The position numbers and the translations under genes were made by a program. Below, one piece after another: positions 13,927 through 64,000 of a stretch of DNA of 64,000 nt (its first letter is position 1; the number at the start of each line of letters is the position of its first letter). Source of the stretch: Candidatus Rokuibacteriota bacterium (GTDB lineage: Bacteria > Methylomirabilota > Methylomirabilia > Rokubacteriales > CSP1-6). Under the pieces are notes generated by a model. That model was not told where the DNA came from. It saw only the letters and a program-made list of their open reading frames with translations, and searched no databases. The stretch covers positions 3,006-67,005 of the forward strand of contig VBPC01000173.1 of NCBI GenBank assembly GCA_005887895.1. Reading direction: 5' to 3'.

Positions 13927-13935
13927 GAGAGGCGC

Positions 13936-15846: not shown

Positions 15847-15854
15847 GCGATGAC

Positions 15855-16002
15855 GGTTCGTGGGCGGCGGCGGGGGCGGGGTCCGGCGACCACGAGGTAG
15901 GCGGCGATGGTTGGGATGCGTGATTCCCTCGTGCCGGGTGGCTCCGTAAGCGGTTGCGGGAAACGGGTCGGCGGACCCCGCCCCCGCCGCCGCCCACGAA
16001 CC
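15855..16002. repeat. 36-nt inverted repeat (35/36 match) with a 76-nt spacer, forming a large potential stem-loop between the USP/PCP_red gene and the radical-SAM gene
   Basis: Arm 1 at 15855-15890 is ggttcgtgggcggcggcgggggcggggtccggcgac. Arm 2 at 15967-16002 is gtcggcggaccccgcccccgccgccgcccacgaacc, the reverse complement with one G/C mismatch. The loop contains a nested cacgagg / cctcgtg inverted pair. Confidence 0.85.
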
Positions 16003-16037
16003 TCCGCGCTCGCACATCTCTCCTTCGGAAGGATCCC

Positions 16038-26683: not shown

Positions 26684-26694
26684 CGGCCGTCCTC

Positions 26695-49167: not shown

Positions 49168-49171
49168 CCGG

Positions 49172-49798
49172 ATGGACCGTCACGACGCCCGCCAGCTGGA
49201 GATCCTGACCGCGATCGGTGAGGGCCGGCCGCTCAGCCAGCGCGCGCTGGCCGAGCGGGTGGGGATCGCGCTCGGTCTCGTGAACCTCTACCTGCGCCGG
49301 CTCAGCCGCAAGGGCTACGTGAAGATCACCGAGTTCCCCACCAAGCCCGCCGCGCGCAAGCGGCTGCGGTATCTGCTGACGGCCAAGGGCCTGACCGAGA
49401 AGAGCCGGCTCACCTACGAGCACATGCTCTACTCGCTGCACCTCTTCCGCCGCACGCGGGAGACGCTGCGGGCGTCGCTGGCGCTCATGGCCGGGCGGGG
49501 CATGAAGCGCGTGGCGCTCTACGGTCCCGGCGAGGCGGCCGAGCTGGCCTACCTCACGCTGAAGGAGTTCGGGCTGGAGCCGATCGGCGTCTTCGCGCCC
49601 ACCGCCGGCGGCGAGTTCCTCGGCTTTCCCGTGCAGGCTGCCGCCGCGCTGCGGCCCGAGGACCTGGACGCCGTGATCGTGGCGACATTCGACCGGCCGC
49701 AGGTGGAAGTCGCCGCGCTCGTGCGCCAGGGCATCCCGGCCGCCAAGTGCCTGACGCTGCGGCGGCTGACGCCGGCCGCGAACGGGAACGGCGCGTGA
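49172..49798 (+). CDS. Winged-helix transcriptional regulator (MarR-like N-terminus) with a C-terminal Rossmann-like domain
   Basis: The HTH is LSQRALAERVGIALGLVNLYLRRLSRKGYV. The C-terminal block is KRVALYGPGEAAELAYLTLKEFGLEPIGVF. Confidence 0.5.
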   Translation: MDRHDARQLEILTAIGEGRPLSQRALAERVGIALGLVNLYLRRLSRKGYVKITEFPTKPAARKRLRYLLTAKGLTEKSRLTYEHMLYSLHLFRRTRETLRASLALMAGRGMKRVALYGPGEAAELAYLTLKEFGLEPIGVFAPTAGGEFLGFPVQAAAALRPEDLDAVIVATFDRPQVEVAALVRQGIPAAKCLTLRRLTPAANGNGA

Positions 49799-51642
49799 GC
49801 CGCTTCGCCGACGCGCGCCGCCTCGCGCGGCTGCTGCGCCGCTACGTGGCGCCGTACTGGCCGGCGCTGGGAGTGCTGCTGCTGACCAGCGCGCTGGCCA
49901 CCGGGCTGGCCGCGCTGTTGCCCGTCGTCATGGCGCCGATCCTCGACCTGGCGCTGGGCGGCGCCCGGCCGACGCCGGCCGGCGGTGTGGGGCTGGGTGG
50001 CCTGAGCCTGACCAATCTCGGCGGCGCGGTGCTCGGGTGGCTCGGCGCCTCCGCGGTCGACGATCGCTTCCGCGCCATCGCGCTGCTCTGCCTGGCCTAC
50101 GTCGCCGTGGGCCTCGTCAAGGGCTGGCTCGACTTCGGCAACTACCTGCTGGCGTTGTGGCTGCGCGTGCGCGCGGCCAGCGCGCTGCAGGCCGATCTCT
50201 TCCGCCATCTGCTGACGATGTCGATGAGCTTCTTCACGCGTCACCGCTCGGCCGAGCTCGTCTCGCGGCTGTCCACCGACACGCGCTCCGCCACCGCGGG
50301 CCTGGAGACGATCGTCTGCACGGTCTTCAGCGCGCCACTGCTCATCGCGTTCTACGCCTACCTGCTGGCGCGGACGAATCCACGCCTGGTCGGAGCCGCC
50401 CTCGCCGCCGCGGTGCTGCACTATGCGGTCACGCGGGGCATCCGCGGGCCCGTGCGTCGGTTCGCGACCGACCAGTTCTCGGTGCTGGCCGAGGTGGCCT
50501 CGCGCTTCCAGGAGGCGCTCGTCAACGTCCGCACGGTGAAGTCGTTCGCGGCGGAGACGTTCGAGCTCCGGCGGCTGGGCGCCACGCTGCGCGAGGTGCT
50601 GCGGGTCAACGTGAAGTTCGGCGTGTACAAGCACATCGAGGAGCCGGCGCGCGCCGTCGTCAACTACGTCGTGGAGGCCGGGCTGATCCTCCTGGCGGCG
50701 TGGGAGCTCCTGGCCGGACGTCTCACCGCGCCGGCGTTCTTCCTCTTCCTTTATGTGGGCCGCGCCGTCATGGTCCAGATCGGCCTCCTGGCCGGCGCCT
50801 ACACGGCCATGCAGGGCATCCTGGCGGCCACCAGCCGGGTGGACGAGCTGTTCGCCGAGCGCCCGGCCGTGCCCGACGGCGCGGAGACGATCGACGCGTT
50901 CCGCGACCGCATCGCGCTGCGCGACGTCACCTTCCGCTACGGCGACGGCGAGCCGGTGCTCTGGCGGGTGACCCTCGACGTCCGCAAGGGCGAGGTGGTG
51001 GCGGTGGTGGGGCCGAGCGGCGTCGGCAAGTCGACGCTGGTCGACCTCGTGCTGCGCCTGTACGATCCCACCGCCGGCGTGATCACCATCGACGGGCGCG
51101 ACCTCCGGTCGCTGCGGCAGCACGCCTATCGCCGACTCTTCGGCGTCGTCGCCCAGGAGCCGCTGCTGTTCAACACGACGATCCGCGACAACATCGCCTA
51201 CGGTCGCGACGACGTGGCCGAGGCCGAGATCGTGCGCGCCGCCCGCGTGGCCAACGCGCACGACTTCGTCGTGGAGTTCCCGGACGGCTACGACACGGTG
51301 GTGGGCGATCGCGGCATCCGCCTGTCCGGCGGCCAGCGCCAGCGGATCGCCATCGCGCGGGCGGTGGTCGGCAGCCCGCCCATCCTCATCCTCGACGAGG
51401 CGACGAGCTCGCTCGACAGCGAGTCGGAGCGCCTGGTGCGCCAGGCGATCGAGCAGGTCGTGCAGGGGGCCACGTCGATCGTCATCGCGCACCGGCTGTC
51501 GACGGTGCTGCACGCCGACACGATCGTGGTCCTCAACCGGGGCGGGGTGGAGGCGGTCGGGCGCCACGCGCAACTGCTGGAGACGAGCGAGACCTACGGC
51601 AGCCTGTACCGGCTGCAGTTCAGCGAGGCCGGCGCGGTATGA
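49795..51642 (+). CDS. ABC exporter, fused permease-ATPase (MsbA/lipid-A-flippase-like)
   Basis: A six-TM domain is followed by Walker A GPSGVGKST, the signature LSGGQRQRIAIARA and Walker B ILILDEATS. The GTG start overlaps the upstream stop. Confidence 0.8.
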   Translation: MSRFADARRLARLLRRYVAPYWPALGVLLLTSALATGLAALLPVVMAPILDLALGGARPTPAGGVGLGGLSLTNLGGAVLGWLGASAVDDRFRAIALLCLAYVAVGLVKGWLDFGNYLLALWLRVRAASALQADLFRHLLTMSMSFFTRHRSAELVSRLSTDTRSATAGLETIVCTVFSAPLLIAFYAYLLARTNPRLVGAALAAAVLHYAVTRGIRGPVRRFATDQFSVLAEVASRFQEALVNVRTVKSFAAETFELRRLGATLREVLRVNVKFGVYKHIEEPARAVVNYVVEAGLILLAAWELLAGRLTAPAFFLFLYVGRAVMVQIGLLAGAYTAMQGILAATSRVDELFAERPAVPDGAETIDAFRDRIALRDVTFRYGDGEPVLWRVTLDVRKGEVVAVVGPSGVGKSTLVDLVLRLYDPTAGVITIDGRDLRSLRQHAYRRLFGVVAQEPLLFNTTIRDNIAYGRDDVAEAEIVRAARVANAHDFVVEFPDGYDTVVGDRGIRLSGGQRQRIAIARAVVGSPPILILDEATSSLDSESERLVRQAIEQVVQGATSIVIAHRLSTVLHADTIVVLNRGGVEAVGRHAQLLETSETYGSLYRLQFSEAGAV

Positions 51643-52661
51643 GCAGGCCGGCGCGACAGGGGAGGGCGACCGTGGGCGGTGTCCAGGGCGTCGTGAACTG
51701 GGCGGAGGCGTCGGTGCTGGTGACCGGCGGCACCGGCTCGTTCGGCAACAAGTTCGTGGAGATCATGCTCGAGAAATACCACCCGCGCCGCCTGGTGGTG
51801 TTCAGCCGCGACGAGCTCAAGCAGTCGGAGATGATGGGGCGCTTCAAGGATCCCAGCCTGCGCTTCTTCGTGGGCGACGTGCGCGACAAGGAGCGGCTGG
51901 AGCGCGCGATGCACGGCGTCGACGTCGTGATCCACGCCGCCGCCCTCAAGCAGATCCCCTCCTGCGAGTACAACCCCTTCGAGGCGATCCAGACCAACGT
52001 CATCGGGGTCAAGAACGTCATCGACGCGGCGATCGACCAGGGCGTGCCGCGGGTGATGGCCATCAGCACCGACAAGGCCGTCAACCCGATCAACCTCTAC
52101 GGGGCCACCAAGCTCTGCGCCGAGAAGCTGGTCGTGCAGGGCAACGCCTACGGCCACCCGCGTTCCACGATCTTCAGCGTGGTGCGCTACGGCAACGTCA
52201 TCGGCAGCCGGGGCAGCGTCATCCCGCTCTTCGCCGAGCAGAAGCGCACCGGCACGGTGACGGTGACCGACCCCGACATGACGCGCTTCTGGATCCGGCT
52301 CGAGGACGGCGTCGCCTTCGCGATCCGGTGCATCGAGCGGATGCGGGGCGGCGAGATCTTCGTGCCCAAGATCCCCAGCATGCGCATCCTCGACCTCGTG
52401 CAGGCGGTGGCGCCCGGCTGCCGGGTGGACGTCATCGGCATCCGGCCCGGCGAGAAGCTGCACGAGATCCTGATCTCCGAGGACGAGAGCCGCCAGGCCG
52501 TCGAGTTCGACGACATGTTCGTGGTGGAGCCCATCTATCCCTCGTGGCCGTTTCCCGCCTGGGAAGGCGGGAAGCGGCCCGGCGCCGGCTTCCGCTACTC
52601 GAGCGACACGAATCAGTGGTGGCTCAGCGGTGCCGAGATGCAGGACCTGGCCCGTGGCTGA
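51639..52661 (+). CDS. pseB: UDP-N-acetylglucosamine 4,6-dehydratase (inverting), PseB/FlaA1 family
   Basis: The blocks are VLVTGGTGSFGNKFV, YGATKLCAEK (YxxxK) and the PseB-typical HAAALKQIPSCEYNPFEAIQTNVIGVKNVIDAAI. Confidence 0.85.
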   Translation: MSRPARQGRATVGGVQGVVNWAEASVLVTGGTGSFGNKFVEIMLEKYHPRRLVVFSRDELKQSEMMGRFKDPSLRFFVGDVRDKERLERAMHGVDVVIHAAALKQIPSCEYNPFEAIQTNVIGVKNVIDAAIDQGVPRVMAISTDKAVNPINLYGATKLCAEKLVVQGNAYGHPRSTIFSVVRYGNVIGSRGSVIPLFAEQKRTGTVTVTDPDMTRFWIRLEDGVAFAIRCIERMRGGEIFVPKIPSMRILDLVQAVAPGCRVDVIGIRPGEKLHEILISEDESRQAVEFDDMFVVEPIYPSWPFPAWEGGKRPGAGFRYSSDTNQWWLSGAEMQDLARG

Positions 52662-53743
52662 TCCGCTGGCCCTGCACGGCGGCCGGCCCGTCCGGAGCGC
52701 GTTGCTGCCGTACGGCCGCCACCTCGTCGACGCCGCCGACGTGCAGGCCGTGGTGGCGACGCTGCGCGACGGGCTCATCACGACCGGCCCCGCGGTGGCG
52801 GACTTCGAGCGCGCGTTCGCCGCCGCGGTGGGGGCGCGCCACGCGGTGGCCGTCAGCTCGGGGACCGCGGCGCTGCACACGGCCGTGTTCGCCGCCGGCC
52901 TCGGGCCCGGCGACGAAGCCGTCACCACGCCGCTGACGTTCGTGGCGACGTCAAACGCCGTCCTCTACCAGGGCGCCCGGCCGGTCTTCGCCGACGTGCG
53001 CCCGGACACCCTCACGCTCGACCCGGCCGCCGCCGCCGCCGCGCTCACGCCGCGCACGCGCGCGCTGATGCCCGTGCACTTCGCCGGCCAGGCGTGCGAC
53101 CTGGACGCGTGGGAGCGCCTGGCCCGCGCCCGCGGTCTCGTGCTGATCCAGGACGCCGCCCACGCGCTCGGCGCCGAGGTGGGCGGCCGTCGCGTCGGCG
53201 GCGGGGAGGGCCTCACCGTCTTCAGTCTCCATCCGGTCAAGCACATCACGACCGGCGAGGGCGGCGTGGTGACGACCGACGACGCCGGCCTGGCCGAGCG
53301 GATGCAGCGCTTTCGCAACCACGGCCTGGCGACGGATGCCGGCACGCGCGACGCCCACGGGCGCCTCTGGTCGGAGATGGTGGACCTCGGCTACAACTAC
53401 CGGCAAGGACGTGCCCGGCTTCACGCTGCCCCAGGTCGTGCCCGACGCCCGGCACGCCTGGCATATCTTTCCGGTGCTGGTGGAGTCGCAGCGGCTGTCC
53501 GCCGATCGCGCCACGGTCTACGCCGCGCTGCGCGCCGAGAACATCGGCGTCACGCTGCACTACGTGCCGGCCTACTGGCATCCCTACTACGCCGCGCGCG
53601 GCTACACGCGAGGGCTCTGTCCCGTCGCCGAGGACGGCGCCGAGCGGCTGCTCACGCTGCCGATCTTTCCGGGCATGACCGACCAGGACGTGGCCGACGT
53701 CATCCACGCGGTGCGGAAGGTCGCGGAGCACTACCAGCGATGA
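52654..53743 (+). pseudogene. pseC: DegT/DnrJ/EryC1-family aminotransferase (PseC-like) disrupted by an internal deletion of about 30 codons plus a frameshift
   Basis: Frame 1 encodes the N-terminal two-thirds up to ...RLWSEMVDLGYNYR (cgg at about 53401) and then runs into out-of-frame Arg/Ala-rich sequence. The conserved continuation (MTDIQAALGLSQL...RRR.IA..Y...L) is missing. Frame +2 resumes immediately with KDVPGFTLPQVVPDARHAWHIFPVLVESQR...HYVPAYWHPYY...VIHAVRKVAEHYQR and ends at the stop at 53743. Confidence 0.7.
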
Positions 53744-54735
53744 CCGCGCTGCGCGTGGCGTTCCTCACCGATGCCGGCGGCGACGCCGGGCTGGGCCACT
53801 TCAAGCGCTGCGTTGCCCTCGCGCGGGCGCTGGGGGCGCGTGGCGCGCGCGTCGACGTCCTCGTGAGCGGGGCGCTGGAGGCCGGGCTGGCGGCCGTCGC
53901 GGCCGATGTCACCCCTCGGCCGCTGGCCTGGTGGGGCGCGCCGGGACGCGTGCTCGACGCGCTGGTCGGCCGCGGCGTCGACGTCGTCGTCGTCGACTCG
54001 TACCACGCCGATGCCGCGCTGCTGACCGCGCTGCGCCGCGCGGCGCTCGTCGTCGCCATCGACGATCTCGCCGATCGCGCGGTGCCCGCCGACGTCGTGA
54101 TCAACGGCGCCTGGCACGCCGAGCGGCTCGCCTATCGCGTGCCCGCCGAGGCGGTGACGCTGCTCGGGGCGCGCTACGCGCTGCTCGACCCCGCCTTCGC
54201 GGCGACGCCGTCACCGCGCGCGCGCGACGGCGTCGCGCGCGTGCTCGTGACGCTGGGTGGCGCCACGCCGGCCGCCCAGACGGCCGCGGCGACGGCGGCC
54301 GTACGCTCGGCGCTGCCCGACGCGACGGTCGACGTGGTCGGGGGTCTCGTGCCGGGGGCGTCGGCGCCGGTGCACGGCGTGACGCTCCACGGGGCGGTGC
54401 CGAGCCTGCGCCCCCTGCTCACCGGCGCCGATCTCGCCGTGACCGCAGCCGGCATGACGCTCTACGAGTGCCTGGCGGCGGCCACACCGACCGTCGCCGT
54501 CTGCCTGGCCGACAACCAGCGTCCGAACATCGAGCACCTCGGCGCCGCCGGCCTGGTCGTGCCGGCCGACTTCGCGACGCTGACCGCGACGGTCGCCCGC
54601 GTGGCCGCGGATCGCTCGCTGCGCGGCCGCCTGGCCGCCGACGGCCGGCACGCGATCGACGGTCGCGGGGCCGGGCGTGTCGCCGACGAGATCGTACGGC
54701 TCGCCGCCACGCGCACTACCGCCAGGAGCAGCTGA
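53740..54735 (+). CDS. pseG: PseG-like UDP-sugar hydrolase (GT28 C-terminal-domain fold)
   Basis: The blocks are RVAFLTDAGGDAGLGHFKRCVALARAL and the C-terminal AVTAAGMTLYECLAAATPTVAV. The ATG overlaps the pseC stop. Confidence 0.65.
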   Translation: MTALRVAFLTDAGGDAGLGHFKRCVALARALGARGARVDVLVSGALEAGLAAVAADVTPRPLAWWGAPGRVLDALVGRGVDVVVVDSYHADAALLTALRRAALVVAIDDLADRAVPADVVINGAWHAERLAYRVPAEAVTLLGARYALLDPAFAATPSPRARDGVARVLVTLGGATPAAQTAAATAAVRSALPDATVDVVGGLVPGASAPVHGVTLHGAVPSLRPLLTGADLAVTAAGMTLYECLAAATPTVAVCLADNQRPNIEHLGAAGLVVPADFATLTATVARVAADRSLRGRLAADGRHAIDGRGAGRVADEIVRLAATRTTARSS

Positions 54736-56069
54736 TGCGTGTGGCGTTTCTCATCAGGCGCGATAACCATTACCGCTTGCTGGGGCCGGTCATCGACCGG
54801 GCGCTCGCGCGCGGCTGGGACGTCGAATGCTGGAAGGCGGCCGACGAGGGTTTCAAGGGCGACCGGGCGCTCGAGCGGCGCGATGCGGGTCCGGCCTTCC
54901 GCTCGGGTCGACCATGCCTGCGCGAGTTCGGGGTCGACGGGCTCGCCCGGCTCGTCGCCGACACCAGCCCGGACGTCGCGATCACGCTCTACCGCGCGCC
55001 CGGGATCGCGCGCGAGGGCCGCGTCCGCTGGCTCGCCCTGCAATACACGCTCAACATCGGCGACCTCGTGGACGGCGATGGCACCACGCCGTTCGACGCG
55101 ATCGGCGTGCACAGCGAGCACTGGCGGACCCTGGCCGCCGACTCGCTGCGCATGCTCGACGAGACGCGCGGCCGGGCTCCCGGGCCGGTGGACGACCGGG
55201 CGGTGGCGGCGACGCTGCGCCACCGTGGCGTCGTCGTCGGCTTCCCCGAAATGGACGGGTTCCACCTGACCGACGCGGCCGCCGTGCGGGCGACGCTCGG
55301 ACTGGAGGCGACGCGGCCCGTCGTCCTGTATTGCCCGTTCCCCTTCCTCAGCAACCCGCGCACCTTCTGGACCAGGAATATCTACGGGCCGTTCCAGGCC
55401 AACCCGTACACGGCGAAGATCGCGCACCGGATGCATCGCGCCGACCGCTTGATCGATCGCGCCGGCCGGCTGCGCCAGCGACTGGCCGTCCGGCTGCCGG
55501 CCGGGCGTCGATATGCTCGGGACGTCGCCAACGGCTGGGACGACCGGGGCGTGGTGCAGGCCGTGCGCGCCTTCTGCGACGCCAACGGCGCCGCACTCAT
55601 CGTCAAGGCCCGCGCGAAGGATCCGGTGGCGTCCTATCTCAGAACGGTGGCGGATCACGTACGCTACGACAGCACCGATTATCCGGCGACGATCCTGGAG
55701 CTGATGAGCATCGCCTCGCTGTGCGTGCATTTCTTCAGCACGGTGGCCTACGAAGCGGCCTATGCCGGGGTGCCGTCCGTCTGCGTGACCGCCGACGCGG
55801 ACGACCTGGGCTTCTCGCCGACCCTCCGGGCGTCGTTCCTCTCGACGGCGTCCGGGAGCAGCTTCAATTTCCCAGGGGTGACGTACCCCGTCAGCGTCGC
55901 GGCGCTGGTCGCCGACCTCCCGCGGCGTCGGCTCGGGGATTTTCCGCTCGAGCCGGCCGCGCGCGCCCAGTACCTCGAGAAATTCGTCGGCCGCGACGAC
56001 GGCAAGGCCTCCGACCGCCTGCTCGACGTCGCGGCCTCCCTCGTCGAGGGCGAGGGAGCCGTGCGATGA
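54735..56069 (+). CDS. Hypothetical GT-B-fold-like protein (TagF/CDP-glycerol glycerophosphotransferase-like or candidate nonulosonic-acid transferase)
   Basis: The protein is 444 aa. The C-terminal blocks IVKARAKDP and ELMSIASLCVHFFSTVAYEAAYAGVPSV resemble the nucleotide-sugar-binding half of GT-B/TagF-like enzymes. There is no firm family match from sequence inspection alone. Confidence 0.35.
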   Translation: MRVAFLIRRDNHYRLLGPVIDRALARGWDVECWKAADEGFKGDRALERRDAGPAFRSGRPCLREFGVDGLARLVADTSPDVAITLYRAPGIAREGRVRWLALQYTLNIGDLVDGDGTTPFDAIGVHSEHWRTLAADSLRMLDETRGRAPGPVDDRAVAATLRHRGVVVGFPEMDGFHLTDAAAVRATLGLEATRPVVLYCPFPFLSNPRTFWTRNIYGPFQANPYTAKIAHRMHRADRLIDRAGRLRQRLAVRLPAGRRYARDVANGWDDRGVVQAVRAFCDANGAALIVKARAKDPVASYLRTVADHVRYDSTDYPATILELMSIASLCVHFFSTVAYEAAYAGVPSVCVTADADDLGFSPTLRASFLSTASGSSFNFPGVTYPVSVAALVADLPRRRLGDFPLEPAARAQYLEKFVGRDDGKASDRLLDVAASLVEGEGAVR

Positions 56070-57127
56070 GACTGCGCGTCGGCCAGCGATGGATCGGCGA
56101 CGGCGAACCGTGCTACGTCATTGCCGAGGCGGGCTCGAATCACAACGGCAGCCTGGAGACGGCGCTGGCGCTCATCGACGTGGCCGCCGAGGCCGGCGCC
56201 GACGCGGTGAAGTTCCAGGGCTTCCGCGCGCGCACGCTCTACCCGCGCAGCGCCGGCACGTCCGACTACCTCGGCGACCCGCGCTCGATCTACGAGATCA
56301 TCGAGGCGATGGAGCTGTCGCCGGCGTGGCTGCCCGTGCTGGCCGCCCACTGCGCCCGGCGCGCCATCCACTTCCTCTGCACACCGTTCGACGAGGAGTG
56401 GGTGGAGCTTCTCGATCCGCACGTGCCGGCCTTCAAGCTGGCCTCGTACGAGCTGAGCCACCTGCCGCTGGCGCGGGCGGTGCTGGCCAAGCGCAAGCCC
56501 GTCTTCGCGTCGACCGGCGCGCACACGATCGACGAGGTCCGCCCGCTGCTCGACGTCGCGCGCGAGGTCGGCAACGATCGGCTCGTCGTCCTGCAGTGCA
56601 CGGCCGCCTATCCGACCCCGCCCGACGCGGTGAACGCCCGCGCGATCGTGACGCTGCGCGGGGCCACCGGGCATCTCGTCGGCCTCTCGGACCATTCCCG
56701 GGATCCGATCATCGCGCCGGTCGTCGCCGTGGCGCTGGGCGCCTGCGTGATCGAGAAGCATTTCACGCTGAGCAACCGGATGCCCGGTCCCGATCAGAAG
56801 TTCGCCGTCGAGCCCGACGAGCTGAAGCGGCTGGTGCAGGCGGTCCGTCAGACCGAGGCGGTGCTCGGCACTGGCGACAAGAAGGTGCTCCCCGTGGAGG
56901 GCGAGCTCCGTCGGTTCGCGCTCCGCTCGGTCTTTGCCCTGCGTGCGATCAAGACCGGCGAGGCGTTCTCGGCCGACAACGTGCGGGTCTTGCGCAACGG
57001 CGTGAACGCGCCCGGGCTGCCGCCCGCCGCGTACGGACGCCTGCTCGGGCGGGTGGCGACGCGGGACATCGCGGCCGAGGCGCCCATCACGACGGCGATG
57101 GTGGAGGATGGCGCTGAGCTGGCGTAG
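56066..57127 (+). CDS. pseI: Pseudaminic acid synthase (NeuB family)
   Basis: The blocks are CYVIAEAGSNHNGSLETALALIDVAAEAGADAVKFQ, a TIM barrel, and a C-terminal SAF domain (FALRAIKTGEAFSADNVRVLR). Confidence 0.85.
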   Translation: MRLRVGQRWIGDGEPCYVIAEAGSNHNGSLETALALIDVAAEAGADAVKFQGFRARTLYPRSAGTSDYLGDPRSIYEIIEAMELSPAWLPVLAAHCARRAIHFLCTPFDEEWVELLDPHVPAFKLASYELSHLPLARAVLAKRKPVFASTGAHTIDEVRPLLDVAREVGNDRLVVLQCTAAYPTPPDAVNARAIVTLRGATGHLVGLSDHSRDPIIAPVVAVALGACVIEKHFTLSNRMPGPDQKFAVEPDELKRLVQAVRQTEAVLGTGDKKVLPVEGELRRFALRSVFALRAIKTGEAFSADNVRVLRNGVNAPGLPPAAYGRLLGRVATRDIAAEAPITTAMVEDGAELA

Positions 57128-57584
57128 CGCGCGGATGGACGACGCCGTGCTGCTGTGGCGATGGGCCAACGATGCCGAGACGCGGCGCCGTTCGTTCAAC
57201 CCGGCGCCGATCCCGTACGCCGACCATCTCGCCTGGCTCGACGCGCGCCTGGCCTCCGACGCGACGCGCCTGTGGATCGTCAGCGACGAGCTCGGCCCGG
57301 TAGGACAGGTACGCGCCGACCTGGCGGACGGCGTGGCGGAGATCAGTCTCGCCGTGGCCCCCGAGCGCCGCGGGCAGGGCCTGGGCAGCGCGATGCTGCG
57401 GCAGGCACCGGGCTCGGTCGGCGCGGCGTGGGGCGACGTTCGGCTGCGCGCCCGGGTTTTCGCCGACAACGCGCCATCGCTGCGGATGTTCAGGCGCTGC
57501 GGCTTCCGCGAGGTCGACACGCACGAGGCGGCCGGCGCCGAGGTGATCGTGTTCGAGCTGGCCGGCGACCGCCGGCAACGGTAG
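57108..57584 (+). CDS. pseH: GNAT N-acetyltransferase, PseH-like
   Basis: The acetyl-CoA motif is RRGQGLGSAMLRQA and the gene sits between pseI and the rest of the pse cluster. It overlaps the pseI end by 20 nt. Confidence 0.65.
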   Translation: MALSWRSARMDDAVLLWRWANDAETRRRSFNPAPIPYADHLAWLDARLASDATRLWIVSDELGPVGQVRADLADGVAEISLAVAPERRGQGLGSAMLRQAPGSVGAAWGDVRLRARVFADNAPSLRMFRRCGFREVDTHEAAGAEVIVFELAGDRRQR

Positions 57585-57594
57585 GAGACGCCCG

Positions 57595-58596
57595 ATGCGA
57601 TTCGTCGTCTTCGGCGCCGGCTCGATCGGACTGCGCCACCTCCGCAACGCCCGCGCGCTCGGCCACGCCATTGCCGGGGTGTTCGATCCCGATCCCGGCC
57701 GCCTGGCGGCCGCCGCGGCGCTGGCCGGCGCCGGCGCGCTCGTGACCGGTGACGAGACGGCGGCGCTGGCCCTCACCGCCGACGCCGCGCTCGTGTGCTC
57801 GCCGACGCACCGCCACGTCGAGCAGGCGCGGGCGGCGGTGGCGCGCGGCTGGCACGTGCTGGTCGAGAAGCCGCTCTCGCACGCGCTCGACGGCACCGCG
57901 GCGCTGGTGGCCGAGACCGCCGCCGCCCGCCGGACCGTGCTGGTCGGCTGCAATCTTCGATTCCTGCCGAGCCTGATGCTCGTCAAGCGCCTGGTCGACG
58001 AGGGCCGCGTCGGCACGCCGCTGTCAGCCCGCGCGGAGTGCGGCTACTATCTGCCGTACTGGCGCCCCCAGACCGACTATCGCCGTGGCTACGGCGCCCG
58101 GCGGGCGATGGGCGGCGGGATCATTCTCGACGCCATTCACGAGCTGGATTACCTGCGCTGGCTGCTGGGCGACCCGCGCGAGGTGTTTTGCTACGCGGGC
58201 AAGGTCTCCAGCCTCGAGATCGACACCGAGGACAACGCCGATCTCCTGCTGCGCTTCGATTACGGCGCGGTCGCCAACGTGCACCTCGACTACCTGCAGC
58301 GGACCTATCGCCGCTCGTGCGAGGTGATCGGCGAGGACGGCGTCATCGTGTGGGACTACATCGCGCAGACGGTGCGCGTGTACGGCAAGGAGGAGCGGCG
58401 GCTGGAGGTCTTCGAGGAGTCGATCAACACCGATCGCAACGCCATGTTCGTCGAGGAGCTGCGGCACTTCGTGGCGTGCGCCGAGACCGGCGCCCCGCCG
58501 ACGCTGGACGCCGCCGGCGGCCGTCGCGTGCTGGAGATCGCGCTGGCCGCCAAGGCGTCGGCCGCCGAGGGGCGGGCGGTGAGGCTCGATCGATGA
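57595..58596 (+). CDS. Gfo/Idh/MocA-family NAD(P)-dependent oxidoreductase
   Basis: The N-terminal Rossmann block is MRFVVFGAGSIGLRHLRN, with the blocks VLVEKPLS and GGGIILDAIHELDYLRWLLG. Confidence 0.8.
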   Translation: MRFVVFGAGSIGLRHLRNARALGHAIAGVFDPDPGRLAAAAALAGAGALVTGDETAALALTADAALVCSPTHRHVEQARAAVARGWHVLVEKPLSHALDGTAALVAETAAARRTVLVGCNLRFLPSLMLVKRLVDEGRVGTPLSARAECGYYLPYWRPQTDYRRGYGARRAMGGGIILDAIHELDYLRWLLGDPREVFCYAGKVSSLEIDTEDNADLLLRFDYGAVANVHLDYLQRTYRRSCEVIGEDGVIVWDYIAQTVRVYGKEERRLEVFEESINTDRNAMFVEELRHFVACAETGAPPTLDAAGGRRVLEIALAAKASAAEGRAVRLDR

Positions 58597-60668
58597 TCGC
58601 CGCCATCGTCCAGGCGCGCCTGGGCTCGACGCGACTGCCCGGCAAGACGCTGATGGACGTGGCCGGCCGCCCGCTGCTCGGCCATCTCGTGGAGCGCACG
58701 CGCCGCATCCCGGGCCTGGACGCCGTCGTCCTCGCGACGACCGGGCGTCCCGCCGACCGCGCGCTCGCCGACTTCGCCGGCGCCTACGGACTGCCGGTGT
58801 ACGCCGGCAGCGAAGAGGACGTGCTCGATCGCTTCTACCAGGCGGCGCGCCGGTTCGGCGTGTCGGTCGTCGTCCGCGTGACCCCTGACTGTCCGCTCCT
58901 CGACCCCGCCGTCGCCGGCCTCGTGCTGCGGCGCTTCCTCGACGCCGCCGGGGAGCTCGATTACGCCAGCAACACCCAGCCGCCGACGTTTCCCGACGGC
59001 CAGGACACCGAGGTCTTCTCGGCGGCGGCGCTGGCCCGGGCCTGGCGCGAGGCGCGCCTGCCCTCCGAGCGCGAGCACGTCACGCCGTACATCTGGAAGC
59101 ATCCCGACCGCTTCCGTCTCGCCAACGTCCGCCACGCCGAGGACCTGTCGCGGATGCGCTGGACGGTGGACGAGGCGGCCGATCTCGAGTTCGTCCGTCG
59201 CGTCTTCGCCCGCCTCGGCGCCGACCGGCCGTTCGGCATGGGCGAGGTGCTGGACCTGCTGCGCCGCGAGCCGGCGCTGCTCGACATCAATCGCTCGCTC
59301 ACGCGCAACGACGGCTACGCCAGGTCCGTGCGGGCCGACGGCGCGCTGAGCGGCCATCCGGGAGAGTCAGGCATGGAGACGCCGCGCCCGCTCGCGCGCT
59401 CCGAGGAGTACTTCGCGCGCGCCGAAAAAGTCATCCCGTCCTGCACGCAGACGTTCAGCAAGGGCCACACGCAGCTCGTCCGCGGGGTGGCGCCGCTGTT
59501 CCTCCAGCGTGCCGACGGCAGCCACGTGTGGGACGTCGACGGCAACGAGTACATCGACTATCCGCTGGCGCTCGGCCCGATCGTGCTCGGCCACAACGAT
59601 CCCGACGTGACCGCCGCCGTCCGCGCCCAGCTCGCCGACGGGGTGGCCTTCTCGCTGCCGCATCCGCTCGAGGTCGAGGTGTCGGAGCTGCTGACCGAGG
59701 TCATCCCGTGCGCGGCGATGGTGCGTTTCGGCAAGAACGGCCCCGACGCCACCGCCGGCGCCGTGCGGGTGGCCCGTGCCTACACCGGGCGCGAGCGCAT
59801 CGCCGCCTGCGGCTACCACGGCTGGCAGGACTGGTACATCGGCGCCACGACGCGCCACCGCGGCGTGCCGGCGGCCGTGCGCGAGCTGACGCAGCTCTTC
59901 GCCTACAACGACCTCGCGTCGCTCCGGAAGATCTTCGACGACCATCCCGGCCAGATCGCCGCCGTGATCATGGAGCCGGTGGGCGTCGTGGAGCCGGTCG
60001 GCAGCTTCCTGCAGGACGTGGCGGCGCTGGCCCGCGCCAACGGCGCCGTGCTGATCTACGACGAGGTGGTGACGAGCTTCCGCGTCGCCCTCGGCGGTGC
60101 TCAGGCGCACTACCGCGTCACGCCGGACCTGGCGTGCATCGGCAAGGCCATGGCCAACGGCTATCCGGTGTCGGCAGTGGTCGGCCGCCGCGACCTGATG
60201 CAGGTCTTCGACGAGATCTTCTTCTCGTTCACGTTCGGCGGCGAGGCCCTCTCGCTGGCTGCCGCCCGGGCCACCATCACCAAGATCCGCGACACCGACG
60301 TCATCCCGCACCTGTGGCGCCAGGGCCGGCGACTCCAGGACGGTTACAACGCGCTGGCCGCCGAGGCCGGCGTGGCCGAGATCACGCGCTGCATCGGGCT
60401 GCCACCGCGCACGGTGCTGACCTTCGCGGATCGCCGGGGCGTCGAGTCGCTCGCCCTCAAGAGTCTCTTCCAGCAGGAGGTGGTCCGCCGCGGCATCCTC
60501 AATACCGGCGGCTTCAATCTCTGCGCCCGTCACAGCGACGGCGACGTCGCCCGCACGCTGGAGGCGTGTCGCGCGGCGCTGGCGGTGCTGGCGGCGGCCG
60601 TGGCCGCCGACGACGTCGAGGCGCGGCTGCAGGGGCCGGCGATCCAGCCGGTGTTCCGTCGTGCCTGA
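58593..60668 (+). CDS. Bifunctional fusion: CMP-nonulosonate / acylneuraminate cytidylyltransferase (SpsF/PseF-like) N-domain plus class-III (GSA-aminomutase/HemL-like) PLP aminotransferase C-domain
   Basis: It is a single uninterrupted 692-aa frame. The N-terminal part (MIAAIVQARLGSTRLPGKTLMDVAGRPLLGHLVERT...VRVTPDCPLLDP) is the CTP_transf_3 family. The C-terminal part (FSLPHPLEVEVSELL..., GTFGGEALSLAAARAT, and the PLP lysine region CIGKAMANGYPVSAVVG) is class-III aminotransferase. Confidence 0.7.
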   Translation: MIAAIVQARLGSTRLPGKTLMDVAGRPLLGHLVERTRRIPGLDAVVLATTGRPADRALADFAGAYGLPVYAGSEEDVLDRFYQAARRFGVSVVVRVTPDCPLLDPAVAGLVLRRFLDAAGELDYASNTQPPTFPDGQDTEVFSAAALARAWREARLPSEREHVTPYIWKHPDRFRLANVRHAEDLSRMRWTVDEAADLEFVRRVFARLGADRPFGMGEVLDLLRREPALLDINRSLTRNDGYARSVRADGALSGHPGESGMETPRPLARSEEYFARAEKVIPSCTQTFSKGHTQLVRGVAPLFLQRADGSHVWDVDGNEYIDYPLALGPIVLGHNDPDVTAAVRAQLADGVAFSLPHPLEVEVSELLTEVIPCAAMVRFGKNGPDATAGAVRVARAYTGRERIAACGYHGWQDWYIGATTRHRGVPAAVRELTQLFAYNDLASLRKIFDDHPGQIAAVIMEPVGVVEPVGSFLQDVAALARANGAVLIYDEVVTSFRVALGGAQAHYRVTPDLACIGKAMANGYPVSAVVGRRDLMQVFDEIFFSFTFGGEALSLAAARATITKIRDTDVIPHLWRQGRRLQDGYNALAAEAGVAEITRCIGLPPRTVLTFADRRGVESLALKSLFQQEVVRRGILNTGGFNLCARHSDGDVARTLEACRAALAVLAAAVAADDVEARLQGPAIQPVFRRA

Positions 60669-61449
60669 GATCCGCACGCTCGACGTGAAGGCGGCGCTCA
60701 CCGAGTACTACACGACGTACTACCGCCACACGCTCGGCATCCCCGGCTGGCGCGATCTCGTCGCTGTCCGCCTGGATGACGCGGCCTACGAAGGCCAGCG
60801 CCTCGTGGCGCTGGAACGCGCCGTCGGCCCCATCCGCGGCCGGCGGCTCCTCAACGTGGGCTGCGGCACCGGCGGCTTCAACGTGCTGGCCGAGAACGCC
60901 GGTGCCGAGGTGTGGGGCATCGACGAGTCGCCGGCCGCCGTGGCGATCGCCCAGGCGCGCATGCGCCGCGGCGAGCGCGCGCTCCAAGCGATGGCCGAGA
61001 CGCTGCCGTTCCCCGACGCGAGCTTCGATCTCGTGTACTGCTACGCCGCCATCGAGCACGTCGAGGACGCGCGACGCTCGCTGCGTGAGATGGTCCGCGT
61101 GATGCGCCCCGACGCGCGGCTCTACCTGCACACCAACAACCGCTGGAGCTGCTTCGAGGGCCACTACAAGGTCTTCTGGCTGCCGTGGCTGCCGGCCGCG
61201 CTGGCCAGGCGCTATCTCGCCGCCCGCGGCCGGCCCACGGCATACCTCGCGACACTGCGACCGCTGTCGCGCCGGCAGTGCCTCGGCCTGCTCGACGCGG
61301 CGGGTGGCCGCGTGCTGCGCGACGTCGACCTCGGCTACGGCCGGCCGGTCGGCGGCCCGCTCTGGCCGTTCGTGCGTCTGTATTATCGGCTCTTCGGCGT
61401 GACGCCGTACATCGAGTTCCTCGCCGCCCGGCGGGAGGCACGCGCATGA
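60661..61449 (+). CDS. Class I SAM-dependent methyltransferase
   Basis: Motif I is LLNVGCGTGGFNVLAENAGAEVWGIDES and motif II is DLVYCYAAIEHVED. Confidence 0.75.
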   Translation: MPEIRTLDVKAALTEYYTTYYRHTLGIPGWRDLVAVRLDDAAYEGQRLVALERAVGPIRGRRLLNVGCGTGGFNVLAENAGAEVWGIDESPAAVAIAQARMRRGERALQAMAETLPFPDASFDLVYCYAAIEHVEDARRSLREMVRVMRPDARLYLHTNNRWSCFEGHYKVFWLPWLPAALARRYLAARGRPTAYLATLRPLSRRQCLGLLDAAGGRVLRDVDLGYGRPVGGPLWPFVRLYYRLFGVTPYIEFLAARREARA

Positions 61450-62222
61450 CGTGGCGCGATCTGATCTGCCGGCGACGCAAGCAGGCGCTCGAGCGGCTCG
61501 GCAGCAACCGGGGATGGTTCCGCGAGCTCTCCGCGTATTACCGCGGCCTCACCATGCAAGAGTTCTGGGTCCGCTACGCGATCCTCCGCATGGAGGCCGC
61601 CAAGCTGTGGGATCGCAAGCCGCGGGAAGGCGAGGCCGACTACCGTTCGTTCTTCGCCGAGACGGACTACTTCGTCCTGCGCCAGATGTACTACCACCGC
61701 AACAGCTGCTTTCACTGGGTCGGTGACGCCCTGCGCCGGGCGGGGGAGGAGGGCGACGTCTGCGAATATGGCTGCGGCGTGGCGCCGGTGACGGCGTGGC
61801 TGCGCCCGCGCTTCCCGCGCTGGCGCTTCACGATCGTGGATCTGCCGGCGCCGGCGCTGGAGTTCGCGCGGTGGCGGTTCCGCGAGGCCGGCAACGTCGA
61901 GGCGCGGGAGCCGGGCTTCGGCCGCGACCTGCCGCTCGTGCGTGCCTACGACGTCATCATGTGCCTGGAGGTGCTCGAGCACGTCGTCAATCCGCTCGAG
62001 GTCGTGCGTCACCTGGTCGAGCACCTGAAGCCGGGCGGCCGGCTGCTGTTGAACTTCTCCGACGACCCCGGCCGCGAGAACCTCGTGGAAAGCGCCGCCG
62101 AACGCGCGGCCACCGTCACCTACCTCGATACCCACCTCGTCGGGGAGGTCACGCTGGGGCCGCAGGAGCTGTACGCCCGTTACGTCAAGCCGTCTTCGAA
62201 GGAGGCCCGCCGAGCCCGATGA
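61446..62222 (+). CDS. Class I SAM-dependent methyltransferase (second, distinct)
   Basis: The blocks are VCEYGCGVAPVTAWL and YDVIMCLEVLEHVVNP. The ATG overlaps the upstream stop. Confidence 0.65.
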   Translation: MTWRDLICRRRKQALERLGSNRGWFRELSAYYRGLTMQEFWVRYAILRMEAAKLWDRKPREGEADYRSFFAETDYFVLRQMYYHRNSCFHWVGDALRRAGEEGDVCEYGCGVAPVTAWLRPRFPRWRFTIVDLPAPALEFARWRFREAGNVEAREPGFGRDLPLVRAYDVIMCLEVLEHVVNPLEVVRHLVEHLKPGGRLLLNFSDDPGRENLVESAAERAATVTYLDTHLVGEVTLGPQELYARYVKPSSKEARRAR

Positions 62223-63274
62223 ACATCCTGGTGACCGGAGGCGCCGGCTTCATCGGCTCGCACGTCGCCGAGGCGTACGCACGCCAGGGCGATCGCGTCG
62301 TCGTCGTCGACAATCTCTCGCGGGCGCAGCTGCTGCACGCCTCGCCGCGCACCGCCGAGTTCACGTGGAACCTCCTCGCCAAGACGCCGAATGTCAGCTG
62401 CGTCCGGGGAGACGTGCGCGACGCCGCGCTGATCGCCGACATCGTCCGCGACGTGGACGCCATCGTGCACACCGCGGGGCAGACGGCGGTGACGACGTCG
62501 CTCACCGATCCCGTGGCCGACTTCGAGACGAACGTCGTGGGGACCTTCCGCGTGCTGGAGGCGGCCCGGGCGGCCGGCCGGGCGATCCCCGTCGTCTTCA
62601 CGTCGACCAACAAGGTGTACGGCGAGAACGTCAACGCGCTCGGCGTGCGCGAGGCCGGCGCCCGCTACGTGTTCACGTCGGGCCACGAGGACGGCGTGCC
62701 CGAGACGCTGTCGGTCGATCACACCAAGCACACGCCCTACGGCGCCTCCAAGCTCGCCGCCGACCTCTACGTGCAGGAATACGGGCGGCTCTACGGTCTG
62801 CCGACGGCCGTCTTCCGCATGAGCTGCATCTGCGGCCGGCGCCAGTTCGGCGTGGAGGACCAGGGCTGGGTCGCCCACTTCGTGATCTCCGCGCTGCTCG
62901 GCCGCCCGCTGACGATCTACGGCGACGGCAAGCAGGTGCGCGACGTGCTCTTCGTCGACGATCTGGTCGAGGCCATGCAGGCCTTCATCGCGCGGCCGGC
63001 CGCCGGCGGCCTGGTCTGCAACGTGGGGGGCGGCCCGCGCTTGACGCTCTCGCTCCTCGAGCTGCTGGACTTCCTCGAGCGCGAGACGGGCCGGCGGCCG
63101 CCGGTTCGGTTCGCCGACTGGCGGGCGTCCGACCAGCGCGTCTACGTCTCCGACGTGCGCCGCGCCGCCGACGTCCTCGGCTGGCGGCCGCGCACGTCGC
63201 CCGCCGATGCCGTGCGCGCCATGCTCGCCTGGGTCGCCGACCACCGCGAGCTCTTCCAGGAGTCGGTGTCCTGA
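62219..63274 (+). CDS. NAD-dependent sugar-nucleotide epimerase/dehydratase (CDP-paratose/tyvelose 2-epimerase-like)
   Basis: The blocks are ILVTGGAGFIGSHVAEAY and YGASKLAADLYVQEY (YxxxK). Confidence 0.8.
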   Translation: MNILVTGGAGFIGSHVAEAYARQGDRVVVVDNLSRAQLLHASPRTAEFTWNLLAKTPNVSCVRGDVRDAALIADIVRDVDAIVHTAGQTAVTTSLTDPVADFETNVVGTFRVLEAARAAGRAIPVVFTSTNKVYGENVNALGVREAGARYVFTSGHEDGVPETLSVDHTKHTPYGASKLAADLYVQEYGRLYGLPTAVFRMSCICGRRQFGVEDQGWVAHFVISALLGRPLTIYGDGKQVRDVLFVDDLVEAMQAFIARPAAGGLVCNVGGGPRLTLSLLELLDFLERETGRRPPVRFADWRASDQRVYVSDVRRAADVLGWRPRTSPADAVRAMLAWVADHRELFQESVS

Positions 63275-64000
63275 AGGTCGGGCTGTTGATCCCGTCGTTC
63301 CTGCCGGTGCTCGGCGGCGCCGAGATCGGCGCGCTCGAGCTGGCGAAGCGCCTGACCGCCCGCGGCCACGCGGTGGCGGTGGCCACGCCGCAGCTGGATC
63401 CCGCGTGGCCGCGCCACCAGACGCTCGACGGCGTCGACGTCCATCGCTATCCGGTGGTCGCGGCCGGCGGCCGCGGGCGGACGGCGAACATCGTCGTCGC
63501 GTCGCTCCGGCACCTCGGATCTCTGTGGCGACGGCTCGCCCCCGACGTCATCAATCAGCACTATCTGCTGCCGACCGGGGTCGCCGGCCAGTGGTGGGCG
63601 GGGCGCCTCGGCATCCCGACGGTGACCACGCTGATCGGCATGGACGTCTGGGACCCGCACTACCGTCCGGCCGCGCCGTGGCGCGCGCTCATGCGACGCG
63701 CGATCCGTCGCACGCAGGCGGTGACGTGCATCTCGTCGTTCGTGGCCGACGTCGTGCGCCGCGAGTATCCGCCGGGCCCCGGCGTGCCGTGCCGGGTCGT
63801 GCCGTACGGGGTGGACGTGAAGACGTTCCGGCCGGGGCCGACGGCGATGCGACAACGCTACGGCCTGACGGCCGCCGACCGGATCGTCCTCACTGTGCAG
63901 CGGCTCTATCCGCGCAAGGGGGTGGCGACGTTTCTCGAGGCCGCCGCCCTCGTCGTTCGCGAGGCGCCCGACGCGCGCTTCGTGATCGTCGGCGACGGGC
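63271..64000 (+). CDS. GT4-family glycosyltransferase, N-terminal part (runs off the window end)
   Basis: The sequence KVGLLIPSFLPVLGGAEIGALELAKRLTARGHAVAVATPQ and the later ...LTVQRLYPRKGVATFLEAAALV are typical GT4 blocks. The start codon is ambiguous: there is no in-frame ATG or GTG near the upstream stop, and CTG 63271 or TTG 63283 are possible. Confidence 0.6.
   Translation, partial: MKVGLLIPSFLPVLGGAEIGALELAKRLTARGHAVAVATPQLDPAWPRHQTLDGVDVHRYPVVAAGGRGRTANIVVASLRHLGSLWRRLAPDVINQHYLLPTGVAGQWWAGRLGIPTVTTLIGMDVWDPHYRPAAPWRALMRRAIRRTQAVTCISSFVADVVRREYPPGPGVPCRVVPYGVDVKTFRPGPTAMRQRYGLTAADRIVLTVQRLYPRKGVATFLEAAALVVREAPDARFVIVGDG

Follow-up and report, generated by a model that had tools for sequence, protein, structure and literature searches.

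A widespread cytidylyltransferase::class-III aminotransferase fusion in a pseudaminic-acid-type glycan operon of a Candidatus Rokuibacteriota bacterium, with a candidate nonulosonate transferase

The sialic acids have bacterial counterparts in pseudaminic and legionaminic acids, which are found on flagella, capsules, lipopolysaccharide and S-layers; such decorations influence motility, the attachment of phages and recognition by the immune system. In its textbook form, the pathway to pseudaminic acid (Pse) comprises six enzymes (PseB-C-H-G-I-F). Here we analyse a Pse-type gene cluster in a 64,000-nucleotide stretch of a Candidatus Rokuibacteriota contig (VBPC01000173.1 of assembly GCA_005887895.1, positions 3,006 to 67,005; G+C ~72%), referred to below as the window. 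In this cluster the cytidylyltransferase (CTase) predicted to form the cytidine monophosphate (CMP) sugar is fused to a class-III pyridoxal phosphate (PLP) aminotransferase (AT), and it is accompanied by an oxidoreductase, by a 444-residue protein without a family match (u444) and by two methyltransferases (MT1 and MT2).

To place this cluster, a brief account of the closest described systems is required. The Caulobacter crescentus proteins FlmA, FlmB, FlmH, FlmD and NeuB, together with FlmC, are sufficient for Pse-dependent flagellin glycosylation in E. coli, and the FlmC protein has no homology to PseF (PMC7591256). The group I polar-flagellin islands of Aeromonas have the order pseB, pseC, aldo-keto reductase (AKR), pseF, class III AT, pseG, (pseH), pseI, with the two extra genes listed without explanation (PMC7874193). 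PseG, a 'glutamate-1-semialdehyde (GSA) aminomutase' and a CTase are encoded side by side in Legionella pneumophila serogroups 6 and 12 (PMC3694923), and a fusion of an AKR to an SpsF-like CTase follows PseC in Moritella/Vibrio (PMC7371886). Papers on flagellin glycosylation in Shewanella, Clostridium and Geobacillus make no mention of the AT and oxidoreductase genes.

Our analysis leads us to consider it somewhat probable that the window carries the front half of a large surface-glycan operon, the core of which makes a CMP-activated Pse-type nonulosonate that is tailored by the oxidoreductase, CTase and AT (the trio), transferred by u444 and methylated by MT1 and MT2. The evidence begins with the fusion and its partner, both placed, like the other genes below, by open reading frame (ORF) extraction followed by Pfam and NCBIfam profile searches:

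57595-58596, + strand: Gfo/Idh/MocA NAD-dependent sugar oxidoreductase, the fusion partner (Pfam GFO_IDH_MocA with C-terminal domains)
58593-60668, + strand: CTase::class-III aminotransferase fusion, 691 residues (CTP_transf_3 at residues 3-182, Aminotran_3 at ~267-690)
58593-59297, + strand: N-terminal FlmC/SpsF-type cytidylyltransferase domain of the fusion, residues 1-~235 (CTP_transf_3; FlmC similarity; confidently modelled by AlphaFold2 for 1-234)
59298-59390, + strand: variable linker of the fusion, residues ~236-266 (gapped, poorly conserved alignment columns; predicted local distance difference test score, pLDDT, <50 from residue 235)
59391-60668, + strand: C-terminal class-III PLP aminotransferase domain of the fusion, residues ~267-691 (Aminotran_3)

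The initial annotation, made from the sequence alone, had described a single frame joining a CTase to a HemL-like aminotransferase, and this fusion proved to be a real gene, with 691 residues rather than the 692 first given. The fusion protein, like u444, is 100% identical to a protein of a Candidatus Rokuibacteriota metagenome-assembled genome. Homologues were collected as 7,494 database proteins at E <= 1e-20, and nearly all of the best 120, from which the architecture was read, were 680-690 residues long with both PF02348 and PF00202; numerous independent assemblies and phyla are represented among them. A scan of a single genome for each GTDB species followed, from which 80 loci were kept. 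The two domains form an uninterrupted in-frame fusion in 61 of these loci, they are adjacent separate genes in 10, and the CTase lies elsewhere in five. An alignment of 14 fusion sequences showed ~60% identity across phyla, with conserved residues flanking the short variable linker. The AlphaFold2 model of the whole fusion (pLDDT 68 overall, the AT half being poor) served only to place the domain boundary.

The fusion is no peculiarity of this strain: relatives were confirmed in at least 560 GTDB species from more than 10 phyla, including Acidobacteriota, Planctomycetota (Brocadiaceae among them), Dehalococcoidia, Nitrospirota (with Manganitrophus), Verrucomicrobiota, Thermodesulfobacteriota, several Proteobacteria and others, as well as on haloarchaeal plasmids, usually with an oxidoreductase partner. 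The cultured Pseudosulfitobacter pseudonitzschiae has a fused protein of 677 residues, as annotated by the NCBI pipeline PGAP. An unfused Gfo–CTase–class-III AT trio is found on a plasmid of Halorussus aquaticus (L082, NZ_CP100401.1, 173426-176676), adjoining NeuB-family, DegT, SDR, GNAT and methyltransferase genes; PGAP names its CTase 'glycosyltransferase family protein'. Other kinds of fusion also occur: P0064, a metagenomic protein of 1031 residues, is a natural Gfo/Idh/MocA::CTase::class-III AT triple fusion, and loci L087 and L088 carry a GNAT::CTase fusion. The CTase::AT protein is a widespread, ancient module. A class-III homologue on pNGR234b of Sinorhizobium fredii NGR234, considered as a possible part of the rkp-3 Pse region, was set aside as a different subfamily, since no Pse genes lie within 15 kb of it.

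An NAD(P) oxidoreductase, drawn from two unrelated folds, is the near-obligatory partner of the CTase and AT. When the proteins of the window were compared with the 80 loci by tblastn, matches were found to NeuB in 64, PseB in 60, PseC in 57, Gfo in 38, GNAT in 34 and PseG in 29, and most of the loci sit in pse-type clusters. With the AKR of the Colwelliaceae isolate L053 added as a query, an oxidoreductase accompanied the CTase/AT in 68 loci: Gfo/Idh/MocA, directly upstream of the fusion, in 38, AKR in 30, and both in none. The Gfo protein of the window matched inositol 2-dehydrogenase and archaeal UDP-N-acetylglucosamine (UDP-GlcNAc) 3-dehydrogenase best among the NCBIfam models, in both cases below cut-off. 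Compact clusters such as L019 and L004 have the order pseB-pseC-gfo-fusion-pseG-GNAT-neuB, that is, the six Pse functions and two extra enzymes; they show no other cytidylyltransferase match and have no room for one. The same genes occur unfused in L053, as pseB-pseC-AKR-CTase-AT-pseG-MT-neuB. Fusions, fixed partners and a common order in unfused clusters argue that oxidoreductase, CTase and AT function as one unit.

Some loci carry further genes. In L087 (2586-7984) and L088, a GNAT::CTase fusion is accompanied by Gfo and a class-III AT, directly followed by a second, unrelated GNAT, then by a second DegT and by u444-MT2-MT1, a layout which suggests additional amination and acetylation steps. 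L064 (3434-8744), the closest long Rokubacteria relative, has a carbamoyltransferase, a hexapeptide acyltransferase, a PIG-L deacetylase and a B12-binding radical-SAM protein between GNAT and gfo, which would represent additional tailoring functions.

PseF membership of the CMP-activating CTase domain is ruled out by its score of only 21.1 bits on the PseF model TIGR03584 (cut-off 205.7), over the first ~65 residues; the domain is instead of the FlmC/SpsF type. It is 39% identical to C. crescentus FlmC over 233 of 238 residues (E 4e-41; the FlmC sequence is a translation of the codon-optimised operon supplied with Ardissone et al. 2020, PMC7591256), and the two share the start motif MI.AI.QAR..STRLPGK. 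The best solved relative is an uncharacterised cytidylyltransferase, PDB 6oew (135 bits). Since FlmC takes part in the reconstitution in E. coli and the minimal clusters hold no other CTase, homology and context point to a FlmC-type CMP-Pse synthetase.

The AT domain is a class-III enzyme (PF00202, 162 bits) with a conserved Schiff-base lysine: K518, in the motif G-K-x-M-x-N-G, does not vary among 14 diverse sequences and falls on the GK motif in the alignment to GSA aminomutase structures. This much of the HemL-like label stood, but the HemL substrate motif is absent. S-P-V-R, which we take to be the N-terminal substrate-binding motif of HemL (with Arg32 of the Synechococcus enzyme), is replaced by T-F-S-K, invariant in the fusion family (invariant residues Q286, T287, S289 and K290). 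The domain also scores below the cut-offs of the HemL model TIGR00713 (256.6 bits, cut-off 527.3) and of its closest model, NF004856 ('PRK06209'; 425 bits, cut-off 486), so that with the replaced motif a true HemL is ruled out. The best models describe GSA aminomutase and gamma-aminobutyrate (GABA) and ornithine transaminases, and the solved relatives include the sugar (aminoglycoside) C-6' aminotransferases GenB and NeoN.

The fusion lies within a longer gene series. By third-position GC frame plot and ORF extraction, all genes from ~44 to 64 kb are on the + strand, in positions that agree with those first given. Most junctions are ATGA or GTGA start-stop overlaps; because these occur at nearly every junction and no terminator-like site was seen from 46.7 to 64 kb, the genes form a single translationally coupled operon. 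Its beginning is upstream of 51639, where the cluster had been thought to start, with a 3'-phosphoadenosine 5'-phosphosulfate (PAPS) synthase, a winged-helix protein and an ABC exporter occupying 47461-51642. From there the order is pseB, pseC, pseG, u444, neuB/pseI, PseH-like GNAT, Gfo/Idh/MocA, fusion, MT1, MT2, SDR and GT4. Besides the oxidoreductase and the fusion, the operon comprises:

47461-49167, + strand: bifunctional ATP-sulfurylase/APS kinase (PAPS synthesis), probable first operon gene (Pfam PUA_2, ATP-sulfurylase, APS_kinase; 4-nt gap to the next gene)
49172-49798, + strand: winged-helix (MarR/HTH_24-like) protein (Pfam HTH_24, MarR_2; GTGA overlap with the next gene)
49795-51642, + strand: ABC exporter with fused transmembrane and ATPase domains (Pfam ABC_membrane, ABC_tran; ATGA overlap with pseB)
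51639-52661, + strand: PseB, inverting UDP-GlcNAc 4,6-dehydratase (TIGR03589; Pfam Polysacc_synt_2)
52654-53743, + strand: pseC, DegT-family aminotransferase, disrupted (partial TIGR03588)
53740-54735, + strand: PseG-like UDP-sugar hydrolase (TIGR03590, below cut-off)
54735-56069, + strand: u444, 444-residue protein of an uncharacterised GT-B family (no family match; predicted fold)
56066-57127, + strand: NeuB-family nonulosonate synthase, putatively in the PseI role (Pfam NeuB, SAF)
57108-57584, + strand: GNAT N-acetyltransferase, putatively in the PseH role (Pfam Acetyltransf_3/1/7)
60661-61449, + strand: MT1, class I S-adenosylmethionine (SAM) methyltransferase (Pfam Methyltransf_11/25)
61446-62222, + strand: MT2, class I SAM methyltransferase of a lineage-restricted family (Pfam Methyltransf_12/23)
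62219-63274, + strand: SDR-family NAD-dependent sugar epimerase/dehydratase (Pfam Epimerase, GDP_Man_Dehyd; under all NCBIfam cut-offs)
63271-64000, + strand: GT4 glycosyltransferase, continuing past the window end (Pfam Glyco_transf_4, Glycos_transf_1)

The ABC protein has an orthologue in locus L001 (72% identity), also directly 5' of pseB, and is a candidate exporter of the glycan or of a lipid-linked sugar. The PAPS synthase, 4 nt upstream of the next gene, hints that the glycan is sulfated; the window showed no sulfotransferase gene. A start-codon scan found no ATG, GTG or TTG at the position expected for the start of the GT4 gene, which may begin at CTG 63271, in a CTGA overlap mimicking the ATGA junctions, or at TTG 63286, the first listed in-frame start.

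The Pse core is recognisable, as had been claimed: PseB exceeds its curated cut-off over its full length (TIGR03589, 470.4 bits, cut-off 407.75), and PseC, PseG and NeuB give full or partial matches to equivalog models. PseG is 35% identical to Caulobacter FlmD and covers positions 2-278 of 280 of TIGR03590, scoring 134.9 bits (E 4e-39) against a cut-off of 153.55. The NeuB homologue shares 37% identity with the Caulobacter NeuB that was tested, and lies below the cut-offs of TIGR03569 (NeuB_NnaB; 309 bits, cut-off 400) and TIGR03586 (PseI; 262 bits, cut-off 340); its substrate specificity is not readable from sequence, and its PseI role is putative. The GNAT has a clear Pfam fold assignment and scores 34 bits on the PseH model TIGR03585 (cut-off 93); its position, and its 39% identity to the GNAT domain of the GNAT::CTase fusion in L087, argue for the PseH role.

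The disruption of pseC also stood. In frame 1 the gene matches only positions 2-243 of 380 of TIGR03588 (273 bits, cut-off 423.5), and its C-terminal third is encoded in frame 2, with the switch at ~53403. Comparison with the intact orthologue of L001 (L001 2283-3800) by blastn and tblastn mapped the lesion: 53212-53402 and 53404-53560 align to 778-968 and 1071-1227 of that segment, so that ~101 nt (~34 codons after GYNYR) are absent and the frame is shifted. The C-terminal remnant retains a coding third-position GC (GC3) signal and its ATGA coupling to pseG, from which we infer that the lesion is recent or an assembly artefact. The window has no second DegT gene. This leaves two readings: a pathway that no longer functions in this population, or a metagenome-assembled genome (MAG) that is misassembled, or carries a strain-variant artefact, at pseC.

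u444 has no match in Pfam or NCBIfam. The GT-B/TagF-like features first noticed in it were borne out by an AlphaFold2 model from a 46-sequence alignment (pLDDT 92), for which Foldseek returned GT-B proteins, with TagF (3l7i, 3l7j, 3l7m) at E ~1e-8 and template-modelling (TM) scores of 0.53-0.58. The family numbers 128 word-indexed relatives, and an exhaustive HMMER search gives 793 representative clusters. PF04464 matches u444 itself not at all and only three of 34 distant relatives, at 19 bits or less (cut-off 22.1). A 444-residue 'hypothetical protein' by the fusion in Pseudosulfitobacter (L083) was also considered as a relative; BLASTP and hhalign found nothing to connect the two.

In the contexts examined, u444 stands beside a nonulosonate (NulO) synthase and a CTase, and is followed by, or fused to, methyltransferases. 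L085 reads pseB-pseC-pseG-u444-NeuB-GNAT-rSAM-Gfo-CTase-AT-MT2-MT1-GT4 and onward, L087 ...Gfo-AT-GNAT-DegT-u444-MT2-MT1-GT4..., L086 NeuB-unknown-CTP_transf_3-u444-MT..., and L081, which starts at a contig end, MT-CTase-AT-u444-DegT.... In P0228, u444 and MT1 form one polypeptide, with a C-terminal domain 55% identical to MT1 of the window. Because u444 co-occurs with both methyltransferases and is fused to MT1 elsewhere, it is a credible transferase; the best reading of sequence and model is a candidate CMP-nonulosonate transferase working with the methyltransferases. The protein is confined to a few lineages, and almost all of these Pse clusters have the trio. The distant relative in L086 (1-11272) lies with two CTP_transf_3 genes, NeuB, a PglD-like acetyltransferase, TPP-dependent E1 alpha and beta subunits, a lipoyl/biotinyl protein and a 640-residue methyltransferase-like protein; the product there may be a nonulosonate with an unusual acyl group.

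The methyltransferases are part of this glycan system, and the concern that they might belong to an unrelated pathway was removed by the fusion in P0228 and by the arrangement of u444, MT2 and MT1 together beside NulO genes in L064, L085 and L087. MT1 is 61% identical to MTb of L087, and MT2 71% identical to MTa, which adjoins the u444 homologue there; MT2 has 230 close homologues, with at least 67% identity among the 120 listed. Both are restricted to Rokubacteria/Methylomirabilota-type clusters and always occur with u444. They may act on other residues of the glycan rather than on the nonulosonate, since in relatives both stand at the start of an extended stretch of GT4/GT2 genes, among which three or more other methyltransferase genes are interspersed.

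Taken together, these genes suggest a pathway. By homology, PseB and PseC would convert UDP-GlcNAc to a 4-amino-6-deoxy-L-altrosamine sugar, which the GNAT would acetylate and from which PseG would then remove UDP; the NeuB-family synthase would condense the free sugar with phosphoenolpyruvate, and the FlmC-type N-terminal domain of the 691-residue protein would form the CMP-sugar. The Gfo/Idh/MocA enzyme may then form a ketone by oxidising a secondary hydroxyl group on Pse or CMP-Pse. The favoured site would be C8, as its oxidation would yield a methyl ketone. Methyl ketones are typical substrates of class-III amine transaminases, and a dehydrogenase with a transaminase is the standard route from a sugar hydroxyl to an amine (e.g. 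WbpB/WbpE, GnnA/GnnB). The fused class-III transaminase could thus turn the ketone into an amine and give a triamino-nonulosonate, which u444 would transfer to an acceptor; MT1 and MT2 would methylate the sugar or its neighbourhood, the downstream GT4s, with further methyltransferases in relatives, would extend the glycan, and the ABC protein would export it. That physical fusion to a CMP-synthetase occurs repeatedly argues for a nonulosonate, or the CMP ester of one, as the pair's substrate. For the oxidoreductase and AT we infer OH-to-NH2 tailoring of (CMP-)Pse as the likeliest role, and the further aminated and methylated nonulosonate proposed at the outset is a plausible product.

Several observations weigh against this pathway. 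pseC is broken in this assembly, and the NeuB homologue scores higher on the Neu5Ac-synthase model (309) than on the PseI model (262). Foldseek matches UDP-GlcNAc 2-epimerases to u444 about as well as TagF, and scores BshA/MshA similarly. TagF and many sialyltransferases have a conserved histidine (the catalytic ones of TagF being presumably H444 and H584); the 46-sequence alignment of u444, considered without structure-based residue mapping, has no invariant or near-invariant histidine. The weightiest objection is that aldo-keto reductases usually reduce carbonyls, and the pair could run from amine through carbonyl to alcohol, or build an N-acyl side chain. Most compact clusters have one acetyltransferase only. 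The literature on the AT/oxidoreductase pair gave passing mentions and no functional study, nor was a described triamino-nonulosonate found there. Caulobacter FlmC works without any aminotransferase (PMC7591256). A possible hint of amination comes from A. hydrophila AH-1, described as of group I type, which has a Pse-like glycan of 403 Da, an odd nominal mass, with some fragment ions differing by 1 m/z unit from those of the A. caviae sugar; the authors' proposed formula is nitrogen-free (PMC4691044). With the subgroup of AH-1 not confirmed, this hint is weak and counts for little. The group II strain A. piscicola AH-3 has a glycan of 376 Da.

The alternative that survives best, though we think it unlikely, is that the AT and oxidoreductase build or alter a substituent (an amino- or hydroxy-acyl group replacing N-acetyl, or an amino-acid-derived decoration) rather than the NulO skeleton, the fusion serving complex formation or co-regulation only. 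Class-III enzymes typically use small omega-amino or aldehyde acids, in keeping with the best models of the AT domain, AKRs (the partner in 30 of the 80 loci) mostly reduce small carbonyls, and known Pse and legionaminic acid derivatives vary mainly in their N-acyl groups. By arithmetic on the nominal mass, moreover, 403 Da is Pse5Ac7Ac plus 87 Da, which fits C3H5NO2. The minimal seven-gene clusters, however, lack any ligase or acyl-carrier gene by which the group might be attached, the physical link of oxidoreductase and AT to the CMP-synthetase is seen in three independent kinds of fusion, and the fused tailoring domain of NeuA acts on the sugar itself.

A second alternative, which we regard as improbable, makes CTase::AT, oxidoreductase and u444 a separate pathway to a CDP- or CMP-linked amino-alcohol or amino-sugar phosphate (CDP, cytidine diphosphate), which u444 would place on a glycan as a teichoic-acid-like phosphodiester decoration, with Pse activated by another enzyme. 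The closest structural match of u444 is indeed TagF, a CDP-glycerol phosphotransferase, a few members of its family have the sub-threshold PF04464 matches, and L081 has CTase-AT3-u444 side by side, the 12 kb examined there containing no NeuB. Yet the CTase domain is a full-length homologue of the Pse-activating FlmC, no other cytidylyltransferase is present in the minimal clusters, and the few lineages with u444 contrast with the near-universal trio; as for L081, it begins at a contig end and its upstream genes are simply missing. Finally, that the fused frame is an artefact of a missed stop or frameshift in the metagenome assembly has a negligible probability, and for the family is ruled out: the contig does come from a MAG with at least one suspicious lesion (the pseC deletion) and the close relatives L064 and L085 do have both parts as separate adjacent genes, but the architecture of the best homologues from independent assemblies, the in-frame loci, the fused protein of the cultured Pseudosulfitobacter and the short linker with its conserved flanks all oppose it.

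No flagellin or S-layer gene was found near the cluster among 20 of the longest ORFs in 1-42 kb and six genes at 42.0-47.3 kb, shorter ORFs not having been scanned; these ORFs encode cytochrome oxidases, radical-SAM proteins, transporters, peptidases and housekeeping functions. Two features of the surroundings are recorded in passing. At 13927-17465 there are two adjacent PCP_red (protochlorophyllide-reductase 57-kDa subunit) proteins in an unusual domain combination, one with Usp and rubredoxin-like domains and the other with radical-SAM/SPASM; and at 25430-28485, on the - strand, a DUF1501/DUF1800 gene pair is followed by a DUF3106 protein.

The interest lies in the module as a class, of which this contig, with its broken pseC, is one more member and possibly a defective copy. 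The module is a very common Pse variant in which two extra enzymes of unassigned function are physically tied to the activating enzyme, and the same extra genes appear in the published annotations of Aeromonas and Legionella. Resolving the role of the pair would probably extend nonulosonate chemistry by a new sugar or reaction step, would correct the database names 'glutamate-1-semialdehyde aminomutase', 'glycosyltransferase family protein' and 'SpsF', and would help to make sense of flagellin glycan masses so far unaccounted for, for example the 403 Da of AH-1. The u444 family (~800 representative clusters) is a candidate for a new family of transferases acting on such sugars. More tentatively, and as a proposal that we ourselves hold doubtful, the trio might define a widespread, undescribed nonulosonate branch leading to a triamino sugar, e.g. 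8-amino-8-deoxy-Pse (5,7,8-triamino-3,5,7,8,9-pentadeoxynonulosonate), with u444 representing a new family of CMP-nonulosonate transferases with dedicated methyltransferases. If that were true, many soil and aquatic bacteria and some haloarchaea would display a chemically undescribed class of sialic-acid-like sugar.

WbpB, WbpE and WbpD of Pseudomonas aeruginosa, a Gfo/Idh/MocA dehydrogenase, an aminotransferase and an N-acetyltransferase, convert a sugar 3-OH to 3-NHAc; the window likewise pairs a Gfo/Idh/MocA dehydrogenase with a PLP transaminase, and the second GNAT of L087 and L088 completes the triad. Unlike WbpE, a DegT-family enzyme acting on a UDP-sugar, the AT of the window is class III, and its presumed substrate is a nonulosonate or CMP ester. 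NeuA, which bears a C-terminal esterase domain, is a precedent for a tailoring domain on a CMP-synthetase; with it and the canonical PseF of H. pylori and C. jejuni the CTase domain shares the CTP_transf_3 superfamily and the presumed reaction, whereas its score on the PseF model sets it apart from PseF. u444 shares the two-Rossmann GT-B fold of TagF/TagB (PF04464; PDB 3l7i), the donor of TagF being a cytidine nucleotide, but differs in having no Pfam match and no invariant histidine, and in its nonulosonate rather than teichoic-acid context.

The Caulobacter pathway has the same six functions and a FlmC-type CTase; there, in contrast, FlmC stands alone, and the six enzymes suffice without a class-III AT or dedicated oxidoreductase (PMC7591256). 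Its transferase is FlmG, acting on flagellin, whereas the candidate transferase of the window is an unrelated GT-B protein with no flagellin gene nearby. As judged from published gene order, the Aeromonas group I islands have the same arrangement, with the same two extras flanking the CTase, and L053 reproduces their layout (PMC7874193). They differ from the window in that the genes are separate, the partner is an AKR rather than a Gfo/Idh/MocA protein, and the target is flagellin, reached via Maf (PMC7874193).

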